Part shown: positions 249 through 54,966 of the stretch, one piece after another | Layout: every line of letters starts with the position of its first letter | How positions within the stretch are numbered: the stretch's first letter is position 1 | Origin: an uncultured Lentisphaeraceae bacterium | Lineage (GTDB): Bacteria; Verrucomicrobiota; Kiritimatiellia; RFP12; DVOR01 | Assembly: GCA_949288955.1 (NCBI GenBank) | Contig: CASEMS010000015.1 | Coordinates: 4,269-68,268, forward strand | DNA length: 64,000 nt | Direction: 5' to 3' | Notes under the pieces: generated by a model | What the model saw: only the letters and a program-made list of their open reading frames with translations | What the model was told of the DNA's origin: nothing | Database searches by the model: none | Translations under genes and position numbers: made by a program

Positions 249-497
249 AGCCGCCGACGCGAGGTACGTCAGCCGCCGATGCACAGTGGCTCGGCGGCCA
301 CCTTTGTGCGGTGCCCCGTCCCTCGGGTCTTTCGGATTCCCCAAGTCCTTCACGTTCTTCGGGCGGGAAAGGACCTGAACGACCTGAAGGACGGCAAGGT
401 GCCGAAGGAGAGGCTCGGAGGATTGGCGGCCATCCCTCCGAGACTTAGCGGCTGAGGTGAGGAGGGGCAGCCGCCATCTCTCGGAGGATTGGCGGCG
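249..497. repeat. Two clusters of 22-bp-phased imperfect repeats (GTCAGCCGCCGA-type and CGGAGGATTGGCGGCC-type) in the leading intergenic region
   Basis: Seen directly: cgtcagccgccgacgcgaggta / cgtcagccgccgatgcacagtg at 249-314 and ctcggaggattggcggcc...ctcggaggattggcggcgg at 411-497. These are related to the TCAGCCGCTGA/GGCCGCCAATCC units found at other intergenic loci in this window. Confidence 0.5.
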
Positions 498-525
498 GGG
501 GCAAGGGGGAGGAGTCGGGGGATGG

Positions 526-572
526 TGCAAAAAAAGCCCCCGGCCGGGGGGCCGGGGGCTTTTTGGATGGCG
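526..572 (-). terminator. Rho-independent terminator (bidirectional hairpin) downstream of PFOR
   Basis: aaaaaaagcccccggccggggggccgggggctttttgg is a GC-rich hairpin flanked by an A-run on one side and a T-run on the other. It sits just past the PFOR stop at 590. Confidence 0.55.
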
Positions 573-589
573 GCTTGCCGCGGGGCGTC

Positions 590-3500
590 TTAGTAGACGT
601 TGAGGGCGGCGAGGGCCTGGAGGTACTCGTACTTGCGGGAGTAGAACGCGTCGGCCTCGGCGAAGAGGAGCTTGGCCTCCTCGGGATCCATCTTGGCGAG
701 CTGCTTGAAGCGGTTCTCGGTGGGGGCCTGGGCCTCGGAGAACTTCTTGGTGGGCGCCTTGGAGTCGAGGGTGAGGGGGTTCTTGCCCTGCTTGGCGAGG
801 TCGGGGTTGTAGCGGAACAGGGGGAAGTGGCCGGTCTCGACGGCCATCTTCTGGTGTTCCAGACCCGTGGCGAGGTTGATGCCGTGCGCGATGCAGTGGG
901 CGTAGGCGATGATGAGGGCGGGGCCGTCGTACTCCTCGGCCTCCTTGAACGCCTTGACGGCGGCCTCGGGGTTCATGCCCATCGAGATCTGCGCGACATA
1001 GATGTTCTTGTAGGTCATGGAGATGGCGGCGAGGTCCTTCTTCATCTGCGGCTTGCCCGCGGCGGCGAACTTGGCGACGGCGCCGATGGGGGTGGACTTG
1101 GAGGCCTGCCCGCCGGTGTTGGAGTAGACCTCGGTGTCGAGGACGAGGATCTTGACGTTGCGGCCGGTGGCGAGGACGTGGTCGAGACCGCCGTAGCCGA
1201 TGTCGTAGGCCCAGCCGTCACCGCCGAGGATCCAGACGGAGCGGCGCACCAGGAAGTCCGCGACGGTGGCGAGCTTCTTGCAGGTGGGGCAGTCGCAGGC
1301 GGCGGCGATGTCCTTGATCTTGGCGACGCGGGCGCGCTGGGCCTTGATGTCGTCGTCGGTCTTCTGGGCGTCGGCGGCGTCGATGGCCTCCTGGAGGAGG
1401 GTCTTGACGTCGGCGGGGGCCTCAGGGCTGGCGACGATCTTGGCGGCGAGCTCCTTGGCGAAGGCCTTTTGCTTGTCGCGGGAGATGACCATGCCCAGAC
1501 CGAACTCGGCGTTGTCCTCGAAGAGGGAGTTGGACCACGCGGGGCCCTTGCCTTCGGCGGTCTGGCAGTAGGGCGTGGTGGGGAGGTTGCCGCCGTAGAT
1601 CGAGGAGCAGCCCGTGGCGTTGGCGATGCAGAGGTGGTCGCCGCAGATCTGGGTGAGCATCTTGATGTACGGGGTCTCGCCGCAGCCGGCGCAGGCGCCG
1701 GAGAACTCGAAGAGCGGGCGCTTGAGCTGGGAGGTCTTGGCGGTGAGGGGGGCGCCGGTGAGGTCGGTCTCGGGGAGGCCGAGGAAGAAGTTCCAGTTGG
1801 CCTCGCCGGGCTTGCGGAGCTTGTCCTGGTCGTAGTGCACCATGGTGAGGGTGCGGCCGGTCTTGGGCAGCTCGGGGCAGACCTTGGTGCAGAGGCCGCA
1901 GCCGGTGCAGTCCTCGACGGAGATCTGGAGGGTGAACTTCTTGCCCTTGAAGGGGGGCTTGGCGTCGGCGGACTTGAAGCCTTCGGGGGCGCCAGCCAGC
2001 GCGGCCTCATCGACGACCTTGGCGCGGATGGCCGCGTGCGGGCAGACGGTGGAGCACTTGAGGCACTGAATGCAGGTGGCGTTGTTCCACTCCGGCACGT
2101 TGATGGCGATGTTGCGCTTCTCGTACTGGGTGGTGGCGGTGGGCCAGGTGCCGTCGTCGGGGATGGCGGAGACGGGGAGGGTGTCGCCCTCCTGGCGCAT
2201 CATGACGGCGGTAACATCCTTGACGAAGTCAGGGGCCGTGGCCGCGACGGTGGCCGGCTTGCGGAGCTTGCCGGAGGGGGCGGCGGGGACGGAGACTTCC
2301 TCGATGGCGTCCTTGGCGGCGTCGATGGCGTCCCAGTTCAGCTTGACGACGTCGTCGCCCTTCTTGCCGTAAGCCTTCTTGGCGGCGGCCTTGAGGAGCT
2401 CGATGGCCTTGTCGACGGGCTTGATGATGCCGGAGATGCAGAAGAAGGCCGTCTGCATGATGGTGTTGGTGCGACCGCCGAGGCCGAGGGCCTGGGCCAC
2501 CTTCACGGCGTTGACGACGTAGAACTTCAGCTTCTTGTCGATGATGACCTGGGCGACCTCATCGGGGATGTGCTCCCAGACGGTCTTGGCATCGTACTCG
2601 GACTGGAGCAGGAAGGTGGCGCCGACCTTGGCCGCGGAGAGCATGTCGTACTTCTCAAGGAAGGAGAAGTTGTGGCACGCCACGAAGTCGGCCTTGGTGC
2701 AGAGGTAGGGGCTGTGGATCGGGTTGGGGCCGAAGCGCAGGTGGGAGACCGTCAGGCCGCCGGCCTTCTTGGAGTCGTAGACGAAGTAGCCCTGGGCGTA
2801 GTTGTCGGTGTTGGAGCCGATGACCTTGATGCTGTTCTTGTTCGCGCCGACGGTGCCGTCGGAGCCGAGGCCGTAGAACATGCACTCGGTGCAGCCGGAG
2901 TCCTTGAGGAGGAAGGTGGGCACGTCGATGGAGGCGCCGGTCACGTCGTCGACGATGCCGACGGCGAAGTGGTTCTTGGGCTGGGCGGCCTTCATGTTGT
3001 CGAAGACGCCCTTGACCATGGCGGGGGTGAACTCCTTGGAGCCCAGGCCGTAGCGGCCGCCGTAGGTCTTGGGATACTGGATGTCGAGCCAGCCGTTCTG
3101 CATGGCGTCGCCGATGGCGGTGCGGACATCGGTGTAAAGCGGCTCACCGACGGAGCCGGGCTCCTTGGAACGGTCGAGCACCGTGATCTTCTTGACCGTC
3201 TTGGGGAGGGCGGCGGCGAAGGCCTTGACGTCGAAGGGGCGATAGAGACGCACCTTGACGACACCGACCTTCTCACCCTCGGCGTTGAGTTCCTCGACCA
3301 CTTCCTGGACGGTCTCGGCGCCGGAACCCATGATGACGACGACATCCTCGGCGTCAGGGGCGCCGACGTAGTCGAAGAGATGATAGCGGCGGCCGGTCAG
3401 CTCCGCCAGCTTGTCCATGTTCTTCTGGACGATGGCGGGGACGGCCTCGTAGTACTTGTTGACGGTCTCGCGGCCCTGGAAGTAAACGTCAGGGTTCTGC

Positions 3501-53555: not shown

Positions 53556-53579
53556 TCTAAAGCAGAATCCGCCCGTCGT

Positions 53580-54596
53580 TCAATTTGGGCGCAGGCGGAT
53601 AAGCGTGTCGGGGCCGAGCGCCTCCCGCGCCACCGGCGCGAAGGCCAACGCCCGCGCCAACGGGCGCGGCGCGATGGCCAGCCCGGGACGTGCCGCGGGG
53701 TCACCCAAGATCTTTGGCGCATACAGCACATTCAGCTCATCCACCAAACCCGCGTCAAGCAACGCCCCTGCCAGACGCCCTCCACCCTCGCAGAGCACAT
53801 CGTTCACGCCGCGCGCGCAAAGGGCACGGAGCATCGCCCGGAGATCATGGCCGTCATACCCCAAATCCCGCGTGGCGACAAGCGTCCGCTCATCCACATC
53901 CGCCGGATCGGGCGGAGTAAAGCGATCGACCAGCACGCGCCACTTCAGGGGAGCGTCAGGCAAATGCGGCTGAAGGCTGGGATGGTCGGCGCGGACGGTG
54001 CCGGCCCCGACCATCACCGCGTCCACCCGCGCGCGGAGACGCTGCACCCACGCCCGCGCCTCAGGGCCGGTGACCCACCGCGACGCGCCCATGCCGTCGG
54101 CGATAAACCCATCGAGCGTCATCGCCAACTTCAGGCGCACGTAAGGCAATCCCTGCGTGATGGCCTTGGCGAACGGCGCGATGAGGGCGCGGCAACGCTC
54201 CGCCACCTCCCCCTCCGCCACCGTCACGTCAATGCCCGCCGCCCGCAGTAAGCCGACGGCCCGACCCGCATGGCGCGGATTGGGGTCGAGGCACCCAATC
54301 ACCACCCGCCCAAGGCGCTTGGCGCGAATCAGGTCGCAGCACGGCGGCGTGCGGCCCGCGGTCGAGCACGGCTCCAGCGAGACGTAGAGCGTGGCGCCCG
54401 CGGGCTCCTCCGCGCAGGCGGCCAGGCAATTCACCTCGGCGTGCGGCCCGCCCGCGCGCAAATGCGCACCCTCGCCCAACACCCGCCCATTGCGGACGCA
54501 CACAGCCCCAACGGCAGGGTTCGGCGCCGTGTGGCCCACCTGAGCCTCACCCAACTCCGCCGCACGCGCCAACCACCGCGCGTCCGCCTCAGTCAT
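53580..54596 (-). CDS. ribD: Bifunctional riboflavin biosynthesis deaminase/reductase
   Basis: CMP/dCMP-type zinc deaminase motif HAEVNCL...PCSTAGRTPPCCD followed by a RibD C-terminal reductase domain. Confidence 0.9.
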   Translation of the reverse strand: MTEADARWLARAAELGEAQVGHTAPNPAVGAVCVRNGRVLGEGAHLRAGGPHAEVNCLAACAEEPAGATLYVSLEPCSTAGRTPPCCDLIRAKRLGRVVIGCLDPNPRHAGRAVGLLRAAGIDVTVAEGEVAERCRALIAPFAKAITQGLPYVRLKLAMTLDGFIADGMGASRWVTGPEARAWVQRLRARVDAVMVGAGTVRADHPSLQPHLPDAPLKWRVLVDRFTPPDPADVDERTLVATRDLGYDGHDLRAMLRALCARGVNDVLCEGGGRLAGALLDAGLVDELNVLYAPKILGDPAARPGLAIAPRPLARALAFAPVAREALGPDTLIRLRPN

Positions 54597-54856
54597 ACTG
54601 ATCCACCAGAGACGACGGCAACGCGCCCGTGGCCTCCGCCCGCGAAGGTTGGTTCCAAGGAATGTCCGACCGCCTGGCCGCGATACTCTGGTTCACGCAC
54701 CCGCAAACCGCCATCGCCGCCAAACCCAAGAGCAACAACGTCGTTTTCATGCCCCCATTCTACCACATCCCCCACCCAGACGCCCCTCGAGTGGCTGTGG
54801 TGTTTTCCGCGGGAAATTGCACAGTGTAATGAACCGAGGCGAGGCACGCCCTCTGG

Positions 54857-54966
54857 AACGTCAGCGGCCGAGTCTGGGAGCGTCAGCGGCTGATCCACCT
54901 TGCATCAGCCGCTAAGTCTCGGAGCGTCGGCCGCCGAGGCGAGAAGACTTGGCGGCCGAGGCGGGT
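54857..54966. repeat. Five 22-bp-phased units (CGTCAGCGGCTGATCC / CATCAGCCGCTAAGTCTC / GGCGGCCGAGG types)
   Basis: Seen in the ribD / MBL divergent intergenic region. Confidence 0.75.

Follow-up and report, generated by a model that had tools for sequence, protein, structure and literature searches.

Phased 22-bp repeat arrays in the intergenic DNA of an uncultured Kiritimatiellia species, probably a lineage-specific family of modular interspersed repeats

What are the short tandem repeats that recur between the genes of an uncultured Lentisphaeraceae bacterium (Kiritimatiellia), and do they work for their host or for themselves? We addressed this question on a stretch of 64,000 nucleotides (contig CASEMS010000015.1 of assembly GCA_949288955.1, positions 4,269 to 68,268; hereafter the window), in which eleven arrays, all of them intergenic, are built on one 22-bp unit. 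The window was compared with independent strain copies of the same species, which were gathered by exact protein matches in ENA metagenome assemblies and are ~98.5% identical to one another in their genes; about 90 kb of the genome was covered in total. This comparison shows that the repeat family has recently entered many intergenic regions of one gut-type Kiritimatiellia species. The best reading of the arrays is a new kind of repeat of the type formed by repetitive extragenic palindromic sequences (REP), bacterial interspersed mosaic elements (BIME) and BOX elements, one that is selfish and not a conserved regulatory device. We assign a probability of about 0.7 to a single lineage-specific family of non-coding modular interspersed repeats, of the same kind as REP/BIME, BOX or the mycobacterial interspersed repetitive units (MIRU), which is seeded into intergenic DNA and grows or shrinks by slippage.

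Arrays, units and nested cores

Within every array the centres of the GC-S-GC cores lie exactly 22 bp apart. Tandem Repeats Finder reported period-22 arrays at 5283, 11425, 30068, 41979 and 50762, and the remaining arrays were read directly in the sequence. A sequence-only reading of the window had listed tandem 22-bp repeats at nine intergenic loci and had proposed a periodicity test: all of these repeats are present where it had placed them, and the register is kept across the arrays, with nine matches to three cores in 22-bp phase as compared to 0.00 in 100 dinucleotide shuffles. Chains of at least three phased cores are confined to arrays. The 11-nt unit core TYRGCSGCYRA has 28 matches where 1.42 are expected; 26 of these lie in arrays, and the two lone ones in genes (14389 and 33669) correspond to the chance level. 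Together with their nested cores the arrays take up 1483 of the 4997 intergenic nucleotides (~30%), in a window with a GC content of ~69% and an intergenic share of 7.8%, and by a tally from the gene map they are present in eight of the ~11 intergenic regions that measure 190 bp or more. Just beyond the window there are two further arrays (L001 2400–2500 and L116 11788–11985; L numbers denote the compared sequences). The view that such repeats are an assembly error, or independent local 22-bp duplications in a GC-rich genome, is already refuted. It could draw on unrelated 11- or 22-bp tandem repeats with TCRGCSGC, which are common in other GC-rich genomes, and on one chance-like two-unit duplication in a JGI contig; however, more than 15 assemblies, made independently from different samples, contain these arrays, multi-unit blocks are common to separate array loci, and the eleven arrays of the window share one 17-bp consensus against 1.4 chance matches.

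Three of the listed loci, or pairs of loci, proved to be composite. The repeats that had been taken as a single array at 249–497 are two arrays (244–313 and 417–504) around a foldback of ~100 bp made of 9-bp repeats, here termed core type 2. The paired arrays at 11425–11512/11731–11818 and 46001–46066/46289–46352 are real, and each pair was now found to flank one copy of a ~220-bp element, core type 1, the two copies lying in opposite orientations. The features are as follows:

244–313, no strand: array A1, three units of the ACGTCAGCCGCCGAYGC type (centres 252, 274 and 296)
314–416, no strand: core type 2, a foldback with inverted runs of 9-bp units (..GTCCTTC / GAAGGAC..), nested between A1 and A2
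417–504, no strand: array A2, four units (centres 428, 450, 472 and 494)
5283–5348, no strand: array B, three identical units GGATCAGCCGCTGAGCC+GAGGT (centres 5291, 5313 and 5335)
11427–11510, no strand: array C1, four units (centres 11435–11501), left of core type 1
11511–11732, plus strand: core type 1, copy C, a ~220-bp element with inverted ends TCTCCGCGARGACGC
11733–11820, no strand: array C2, four units (centres 11741–11807), right of core type 1
30084–30196, no strand: array D, five units of a diverged, poorly palindromic variant GAGTCGGCCCCCGATCC+TCAGC
41979–42044, no strand: array E, three units (centres 41987–42031); unit 1 is the reverse complement of unit 2, and the two form a hairpin of 19 bp
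46004–46064, no strand: array F1, three units (centres 46012–46056), left of core type 1 copy F
46065–46287, minus strand: core type 1, copy F, opposite to copy C and about 83–98% identical to it in blocks
46288–46375, no strand: array F2, four units (centres 46296–46362), the first ~55 bp of which duplicate array F1
50737–50866, no strand: array G, four good and two degenerate units with a 44-bp higher-order period (centres 50745–50855)
54858–54966, no strand: array H, five units (centres 54866–54954) with a mixed central base (G, G, C, C, G)

The unit consists of a 17-bp two-fold symmetric motif and a 5-bp spacer. Over the 44 units of the window its consensus reads (G)G(A/T)-G-R-N-T-C-R-G-C-[C/G]-G-C-Y-G-A-N-Y-C followed by the 5-nt spacer; the 17-mer can also be written GGATCAGC-S-GCTGATCC, with an invariant GC.GC core. 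The palindrome TCAGC(C/G)GCTGA, on which the family had been said to be built, occurs in its exact form in only 8 of the 44 units; the general consensus of the symmetric motif is G..TCRGCSGCYGA..C. Best kept are the central GC.GC, T/A at −5/+5 and G/C at −8/+8, whilst the variation in the arms consists mostly of transitions. Amongst 91 distinct units, 81.7% of the arm cells pair as compared to 78.6% with shuffled partners, making the two-fold symmetry mostly a consensus-level property; covariation in these units shows a small excess over shuffles, which is confounded by relatedness, and only one clear covarying pair, at positions −3/+3 (A-T / G-C / G-T). The two outer arm pairs are unpaired in 43–47% of units and the reliably paired stem within a unit measures 4–5 bp. 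Both the central base (C or G) and the spacer are found in either orientation, without regular alternation, and no RNA strand was assignable from G-T versus A-C mismatches, as these were mixed within arrays.

Within one array, units are frequently identical or show an alternating 44-bp period, which is a signature of replication slippage or unequal exchange. RNA-fold z-scores range from −1.8 to −5.8 in four of five arrays; given that tandem symmetric units create a symmetry every 11 bp, the arrays fold mainly via pairing between neighbouring units. In case of array D the symmetry has been lost (z −0.5 and +1.6), yet the array holds five identical units: amplification without symmetry indicates that the hairpin is not needed for amplification.

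The inverted ends of core type 1 are 15 nt long and differ solely at the R position of TCTCCGCGARGACGC. Its predicted fold is Y-shaped, with two long hairpins closed by the ends and a z-score of about −6 on either strand. The span from array centre to array centre across this core is 240 bp at both C and F, and thus core type 1 sits at one fixed position relative to the unit phase. Core type 2 is unrelated to core type 1, and a second copy of its kind lies between arrays in L108 (4830–4990), so that array-core-array is a recurrent architecture with interchangeable cores. Rfam gave no match for arrays or cores, either across the window or in a permissive search of locus C; a sub-threshold match to an RNase P fragment was rejected as chance. 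An autonomous partner element for core type 1 was not found.

Strain variation, relatives and genomic setting

Strain copies differ in exact 22- or 44-bp steps at four loci, with added units that copy their neighbours: three versus four units at locus B (99 versus 122 bp; four in L004), three versus five at locus E (99 versus 143 bp; five in L111), five versus six at locus G (144 versus 166 bp; the extra unit in L107 and L108) and nine, six or five, depending on the strain copy, in the array past the right end of the window. Core type 1 is missing at locus C in L001 (178 versus 439 bp) and at locus F in L107 and L109 (132 or 176 versus 414 bp), an uninterrupted "solo" array being left in each case; in L112 the locus F copy is partly deleted (333 bp). 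Between the window and the strain copies, substitution divergence is lowest in genes (1.36%) and cores (1.5%) and higher in arrays (3.2%) and the remaining intergenic DNA (2.8%). Arrays thus diverge about as much as other intergenic DNA and are no more constrained than neutral spacer. Multi-base differences are clustered inside single units, which suggests conversion between units.

Relatives of the species, ordered by the identity of their glutamine synthetase III (L105 96%, L106 93%, L100 92%, L101/L102 89%, L103/L104 86%), contain 0–1 unit matches and no period-22 arrays in 4–22 kb. Their syntenic gltB-glnA3 spacer carries no array and retains the sigma-54 promoter and TTACA-N6-TGTAA motifs; these spacers are too diverged for exact insertion boundaries to be drawn. 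A strict two-unit pattern retrieved from JGI metagenome contigs only the chance-like duplication mentioned above, at the 3' end of a regulator gene, and had 0 matches in viral contigs, and a plasmid BLAST of locus C gave no match. Three phased TCRGCSGC cores proved too loose as a pattern for genome contigs, the matches listed being unrelated 11- or 22-bp tandem repeats of GC-rich genomes. The 22-bp family is young and narrow in its distribution. In one relative, L106, a short tandem repeat unrelated to this family (GTTCTCT / GTTCTCC units, 395–435) lies upstream of the glutamine synthetase III gene, and different lineages of the group appear to carry different spacer repeats.

Three array loci (B, C and H) are situated between divergent genes and five between co-directional genes, with most window arrays on the 5' side of at least one gene. 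Array B separates the divergent genes for fructose-bisphosphate aldolase and a sigma-54 activator, and array H those for RibD and a metallo-beta-lactamase-fold protein. Arrays A and D follow the intrinsic terminator of the upstream gene, D preceding a DUF1846 gene, whilst at arrays F and G, both flanked by co-directional genes, no terminator is obvious and co-transcription with the neighbouring genes is probable; one array just outside the window is placed between two convergent terminators. Locus C is flanked by divergent sigma-54 promoters (11351–11366 on the minus strand and 12015–12030 on the plus strand; TGGCAC-N5-TTGCA, two found against 0.02 expected), which drive glutamate synthase and glutamine synthetase III. 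Between these promoters stand TTACA-N6-TGTAA motifs (11833–11870), conserved in relatives, that may be enhancer sites of the adjacent GAF/sigma-54 activator (5440–6966). The arrays and core type 1 lie inside this enhancer-promoter spacer, and through them the length of the spacer changes by 261 bp between strains.

An intrinsic terminator (L116 11655–11695) with the stem GCCCCTGATCC...GGATCAGGGGC and a T-run follows the gene for GTP cyclohydrolase I, about 200 bp past the right-hand edge of the window. The match of its arms to the unit arm GGATCAG suggests a terminator that is derived from, or ancestral to, the repeat unit. A search for shared array termini or a target motif was unsuccessful: only C-rich tracts on one side and G-rich (GGGGAGGGG-like) tracts on the other recur beside the arrays (200–245, 497–530, 11400–11426, 11815–11835, 46355–46400 and 54960–54975). 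These tracts may be preferred landing sites; as the G-rich tract of locus C is also present in array-less relatives, they are a native feature of the spacers and not element ends.

The repeats had been described as never occurring inside genes. This holds for the window, but in other strains an array-bearing element interrupts the transposase gene of an IS30-like insertion sequence (IS). The split falls at residue ~134/138, and each edge of the break is bordered by an array: in L117, residues 1–134 (L117 2172–2467) run directly into array H, and in L108 an array-core-2-array composite precedes residues 138–303 (L108 5225–5838). We considered this transposase as the mobiliser of the arrays and rejected it. 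A near-intact relative in another bacterium (L115 1613–2676) has ordinary ends without arrays, and the gene is here interrupted, not bounded, by arrays; hence the IS is a victim of array insertion or recombination. The transposase itself has no Pfam match above threshold, shows recognisable DDE motifs and is 32% identical to a JGI "IS30 family transposase"; this diverged, previously unannotated member of the IS30 family is present as many fragments in these metagenomes, and the L108 copy has in addition an internal 42-bp duplication. Collinearity with the window ends at 54808 in three strain copies (L108, L109 and L110), at a distance of 49 bp from array H. This strain-specific rearrangement breakpoint is consistent with arrays acting as recombination substrates, and assembly ambiguity may contribute to it.

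Kind of repeat and competing explanations

In BIMEs, clustered REPs alternate in orientation and are interspersed with other conserved motifs, and the REP-associated tyrosine transposase (RAYT, of the IS200/IS605-type Y1 group) is encoded by a gene flanked by the repeats. REPs are imperfect palindromes of 20–40 bp with a 6–13-bp stem and a 2–3-nt loop, fall into GTAG- or CGTC-tagged families and occur in tandem clusters as well as in the Planctomycetes-Verrucomicrobia-Chlamydiae superphylum, for example in Opitutus terrae; in these families head-tail dimers are rare and head-head or tail-tail pairs dominate (PMC3733652). The 22-bp family resembles REP/BIME in its short, GC-rich and symmetric units, which are strictly extragenic and very dense, lie in tandem clusters of strain-variable copy number, form sub-families with alternative complementary stem bases and are sites at which other mobile DNA lands or recombines; a high-copy extragenic distribution was found across the ~90 kb. 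It differs from REPs in lacking the GTAG tag, both in the consensus and in 44 of 44 window units, in bearing CGTC in only 5 of 44 (arrays A1 and H), in its exclusively head-to-tail arrangement at a fixed 22 bp, and in a reliable stem of just 4–5 bp with the centre as its most conserved part. Compared with BIMEs, the orientation is undefined for most units, and clusters and a mosaic with core type 1, core type 2 and extra hairpins are observed. The REP/BIME-like character suggested by the sequence-only reading is supported as to kind (extragenic, dense, symmetric, varying in copy number by unit steps, absent from relatives, neutral-like and with mobile-looking cores) and fails on the specific marks of tag and arrangement.

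BOX elements of Streptococcus pneumoniae have the form boxA-boxB(n)-boxC, with a strain-variable tandem boxB module of 45 bp (PMC3049150). Both BOX and the 22-bp family are dispersed composite repeats, intergenic and predicted to fold, with a tandem module whose number varies by strain and no known mobilising enzyme. The tandem 22-bp modules, however, lie outside and the optional core inside, whereas BOX has an internal tandem module and unique end modules; most loci here are arrays alone, without shared termini. The MIRU units of mycobacteria measure 40–100 bp and the short tandemly repeated repetitive sequences (STRR) of cyanobacteria are 7-bp heptamers; the units of both are not known to be palindromic or to hold nested cores. 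The 22-bp family shares with MIRU-type variable number tandem repeats (VNTR) and with STRR the occurrence of a single family in tandem arrays spread over many intergenic loci, each of them polymorphic in copy number. Core type 1 is comparable to miniature inverted-repeat transposable elements (MITE) in its 15-nt terminal inverted repeats, its length of ~220 bp, its strong structure and its presence or absence by strain. Eukaryotic Foldback transposons have long inverted ends built of short tandem repeats, and the array-core-array composites likewise form long foldbacks with arms of tandem short repeats; Foldback elements are not known from bacteria. In contrast to both MITE and Foldback elements, the flanks of core type 1 are duplicated array units and not a short target-site duplication.

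Other architectures could be set aside. Plasmid iterons (as in the R6K and RK2 origins) are asymmetric 17–22-bp repeats at 22-bp spacing, confined to one or two origin regions and bound by a linked Rep protein. The 17-bp site and 5-bp spacer in a 22-bp head-to-tail phase are similar, but the spread over 11 or more chromosomal loci within about 90 kb, symmetric units and the lack of a rep gene or plasmid match exclude this reading. CRISPR arrays have 23–48-bp repeats and unique spacers of similar length, usually near cas genes; here the "spacer" is 5 bp long and repetitive, the arrays are many and short, and the window holds no cas genes. Readings as parS-like sites or restriction sites were ruled out on architecture.

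Two explanations that assign the arrays a role in the host were weighed against the selfish repeat family. In one of them, which we regard as unlikely, the 17-bp units are operators of a dimeric protein of nucleoid-associated, regulatory or silencing type and the 22-bp spacing leads to cooperative, filament-like binding that structures or insulates promoter regions. The consensus-level two-fold symmetry, the invariant GC.GC core and the G/C at −8/+8, with arms that vary mainly by transitions and show little covariation, would all suit such operators, as would the strict register even amongst dissimilar units, the location of most window arrays 5' of at least one gene (A and D past the upstream terminator) and that of locus C between divergent sigma-54 promoters. 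However, relatives keep the same genes and promoters without the arrays, unit number varies amongst strains, array divergence equals that of neutral intergenic DNA, array D was amplified despite its lost symmetry, arrays also occur between convergent terminators and inside an IS gene, and no candidate protein was identified. The related proposal of the sequence-only reading, in which a nucleoid or DNA-structuring protein binds cooperatively to one face of the DNA, took 22 bp as two helical turns. It is in fact ~2.1 turns, so that successive units drift by about 34 degrees and rotate off strictly one face; with this non-integral spacing and with arrays that are dispensable between strains and species, the proposal finds no positive support. 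A symmetric 17-mer with a conserved centre does suggest a protein recognition site, most economically that of a mobilising enzyme; a host structural protein as its binder is possible but unsupported.

The other explanation holds that the arrays are transcribed as RNA hairpins, which stabilise mRNA against 3' exonucleases, act as terminators or attenuators, or form processing sites. Roles in mRNA stabilisation, termination and processing have been proposed for REPs in enteric bacteria, and there are observations that would agree with such roles here: the probable co-transcription of arrays F and G with co-directional genes that lack an obvious terminator, array folds that reach a z-score of −5.8, some G-T pairs, and the terminator just outside the window whose stem GCCCCTGATCC / GGATCAGGGGC looks derived from unit arms. 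Against this, there is no strand bias, with A-C and G-T mismatches sharing arrays and the orientation of central base and spacer mixed; A and D lie downstream of the preceding terminators, and B, C and H lie between divergent promoters and need not be transcribed. As the reliable intra-unit stem is also just 4–5 bp and the absence of arrays in relatives speaks against an essential role, we consider RNA hairpins a distinctly unlikely explanation.

For the selfish repeat family we propose the following course of events. The seeding of new loci would involve transposition or gene conversion from one array to another, with a trans-acting enzyme encoded outside the window as catalyst; for this enzyme the symmetric 17-mer would act as recognition site and/or as former of a hairpin or cruciform. 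Insertions would survive only where they are harmless, that is in intergenic DNA, in the spacers between sigma-54 enhancers and promoters, or in an IS, and the arrays would then lengthen or shorten locally through slippage or unequal exchange. The units being palindromic, arrays can recombine ectopically in either orientation, and this may lead to core deletion ("solo" arrays) and to rearrangements. Effects on the host, such as transcript hairpins and terminator-like stems, would be secondary, with occasional exaptation as in the unit-like terminator stem.

Several observations weigh against this course of events. Neither a transposase nor a RAYT gene is present amongst the window proteins, neither a target-site duplication nor defined array termini were recognised, and transposition itself is a step that we infer. 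The flanks of core type 1 are duplicated array units (one unit at locus C; 2.4 units or 53 bp at locus F by direct reading, where sequence comparison gives 59 nt at 97% identity), and owing to these duplicated flanks a deletion by recombination between the flanking arrays explains the "empty" alleles equally well. Furthermore, the GCSGC centre, which would be the loop of a hairpin, is more conserved than the stem; with pairing barely in excess, specific recognition of the sequence by a protein is a better fit than an element that is purely a hairpin. To call the family genome-wide is also an extrapolation from ~90 kb. A different reading of the same features, which we judge improbable, takes each unit as a recognition site, in phase with its neighbours, for a DNA enzyme or binding protein peculiar to the lineage. 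Array-core-array would be the bacterial counterpart of a foldback transposon, with interchangeable cores and long ends made of tandem modules that bind protein, and solo arrays would be elements without a core; the staggered whole-unit duplications at core insertions would arise when different units in a protein-array filament are cut at equivalent positions. If this were true, staggered whole-unit duplication would represent a new mode of mobilisation.

As a selfish family, the repeats represent a very recent and very dense invasion of an uncultured Kiritimatiellia genome: they make up ~30% of the intergenic DNA seen, whilst none are present in relatives with a 96% identical glutamine synthetase III. 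Variation from strain to strain is already visible in public metagenome assemblies and offers ready VNTR markers for strain tracking, and the arrays account for the points at which contigs of this group break or are rearranged in assemblies. For the study of mobilisation, the tagless and strictly phased units provide a contrast to GTAG-type REPs. The findings give no evidence for a new regulatory or chromatin system.

Gene content and minor observations

The housekeeping genes of the window include those for pyruvate:ferredoxin oxidoreductase, fructose-bisphosphate aldolase, the GAF/sigma-54 activator, glutamate synthase and glutamine synthetase III, together with carAB, pyrG, a type I restriction-modification island, a lysyl-tRNA-synthetase-like gene, transketolase, murJ and lpxK. 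For glutamine synthetase III, the closest named homologues belong to "Candidatus Spyradenecus" and Kiritimatiellia genome bins. Its gene shifts frame at 12839–12854 (residues 1–263 in frame 1, 259–688 in frame 3), whilst other strain copies encode 688 aa; this frame change reflects either a pseudogene with a 1-bp indel or an error in the consensus of the window.

The region 22177–28332 is an island of lower GC content (54–60% versus ~69%) that encodes the type I restriction-modification system hsdR, hsdS and hsdM, with a SieB-like superinfection-exclusion gene inserted between hsdR and hsdS and a DUF3800-VII RNA (Rfam RF02967, 53.8 bits) at 25052–25132, at the junction of hsdR and the SieB-like gene. 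The island probably represents defence DNA gained by horizontal transfer.

Further differences exist between the window and the strain copies. Over its first 757 bp the window shares just 93% identity with L001, as compared to 98.5% elsewhere, and L001 is without 112 bp (window 758–869) near the 3' end of the pyruvate:ferredoxin oxidoreductase gene (1149 versus 1187 aa). In L004, a stretch of ~3.7 kb with GH101 and galactose-mutarotase-like genes (4988–8704, between window 6974 and 6966) separates the sigma-54 activator from glutamate synthase; this stretch either was inserted in that strain alone or reflects a chimeric assembly. Directly adjoining array F is a GNAT acetyltransferase gene (window 45514–45996), which is intact at 160 aa in several strain copies; it is called in two pieces (63 + 94 aa) in L108 (14697–15154) and L110 (8977–9434), and the longest window open reading frame measures 119–134 aa, which indicates that the gene is frameshifted in strains with the 414-bp allele of locus F. 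Finally, a gene for a zinc-ribbon protein of ~270 aa lies between the GNAT and DnaJ-like genes in L109 (9593–10426), L112 (9226–10029), L113 (8797–9630) and L114 (11916–12749), and is missing at the corresponding window position (~45410–45514) and in L107, L108, L110 and L111.

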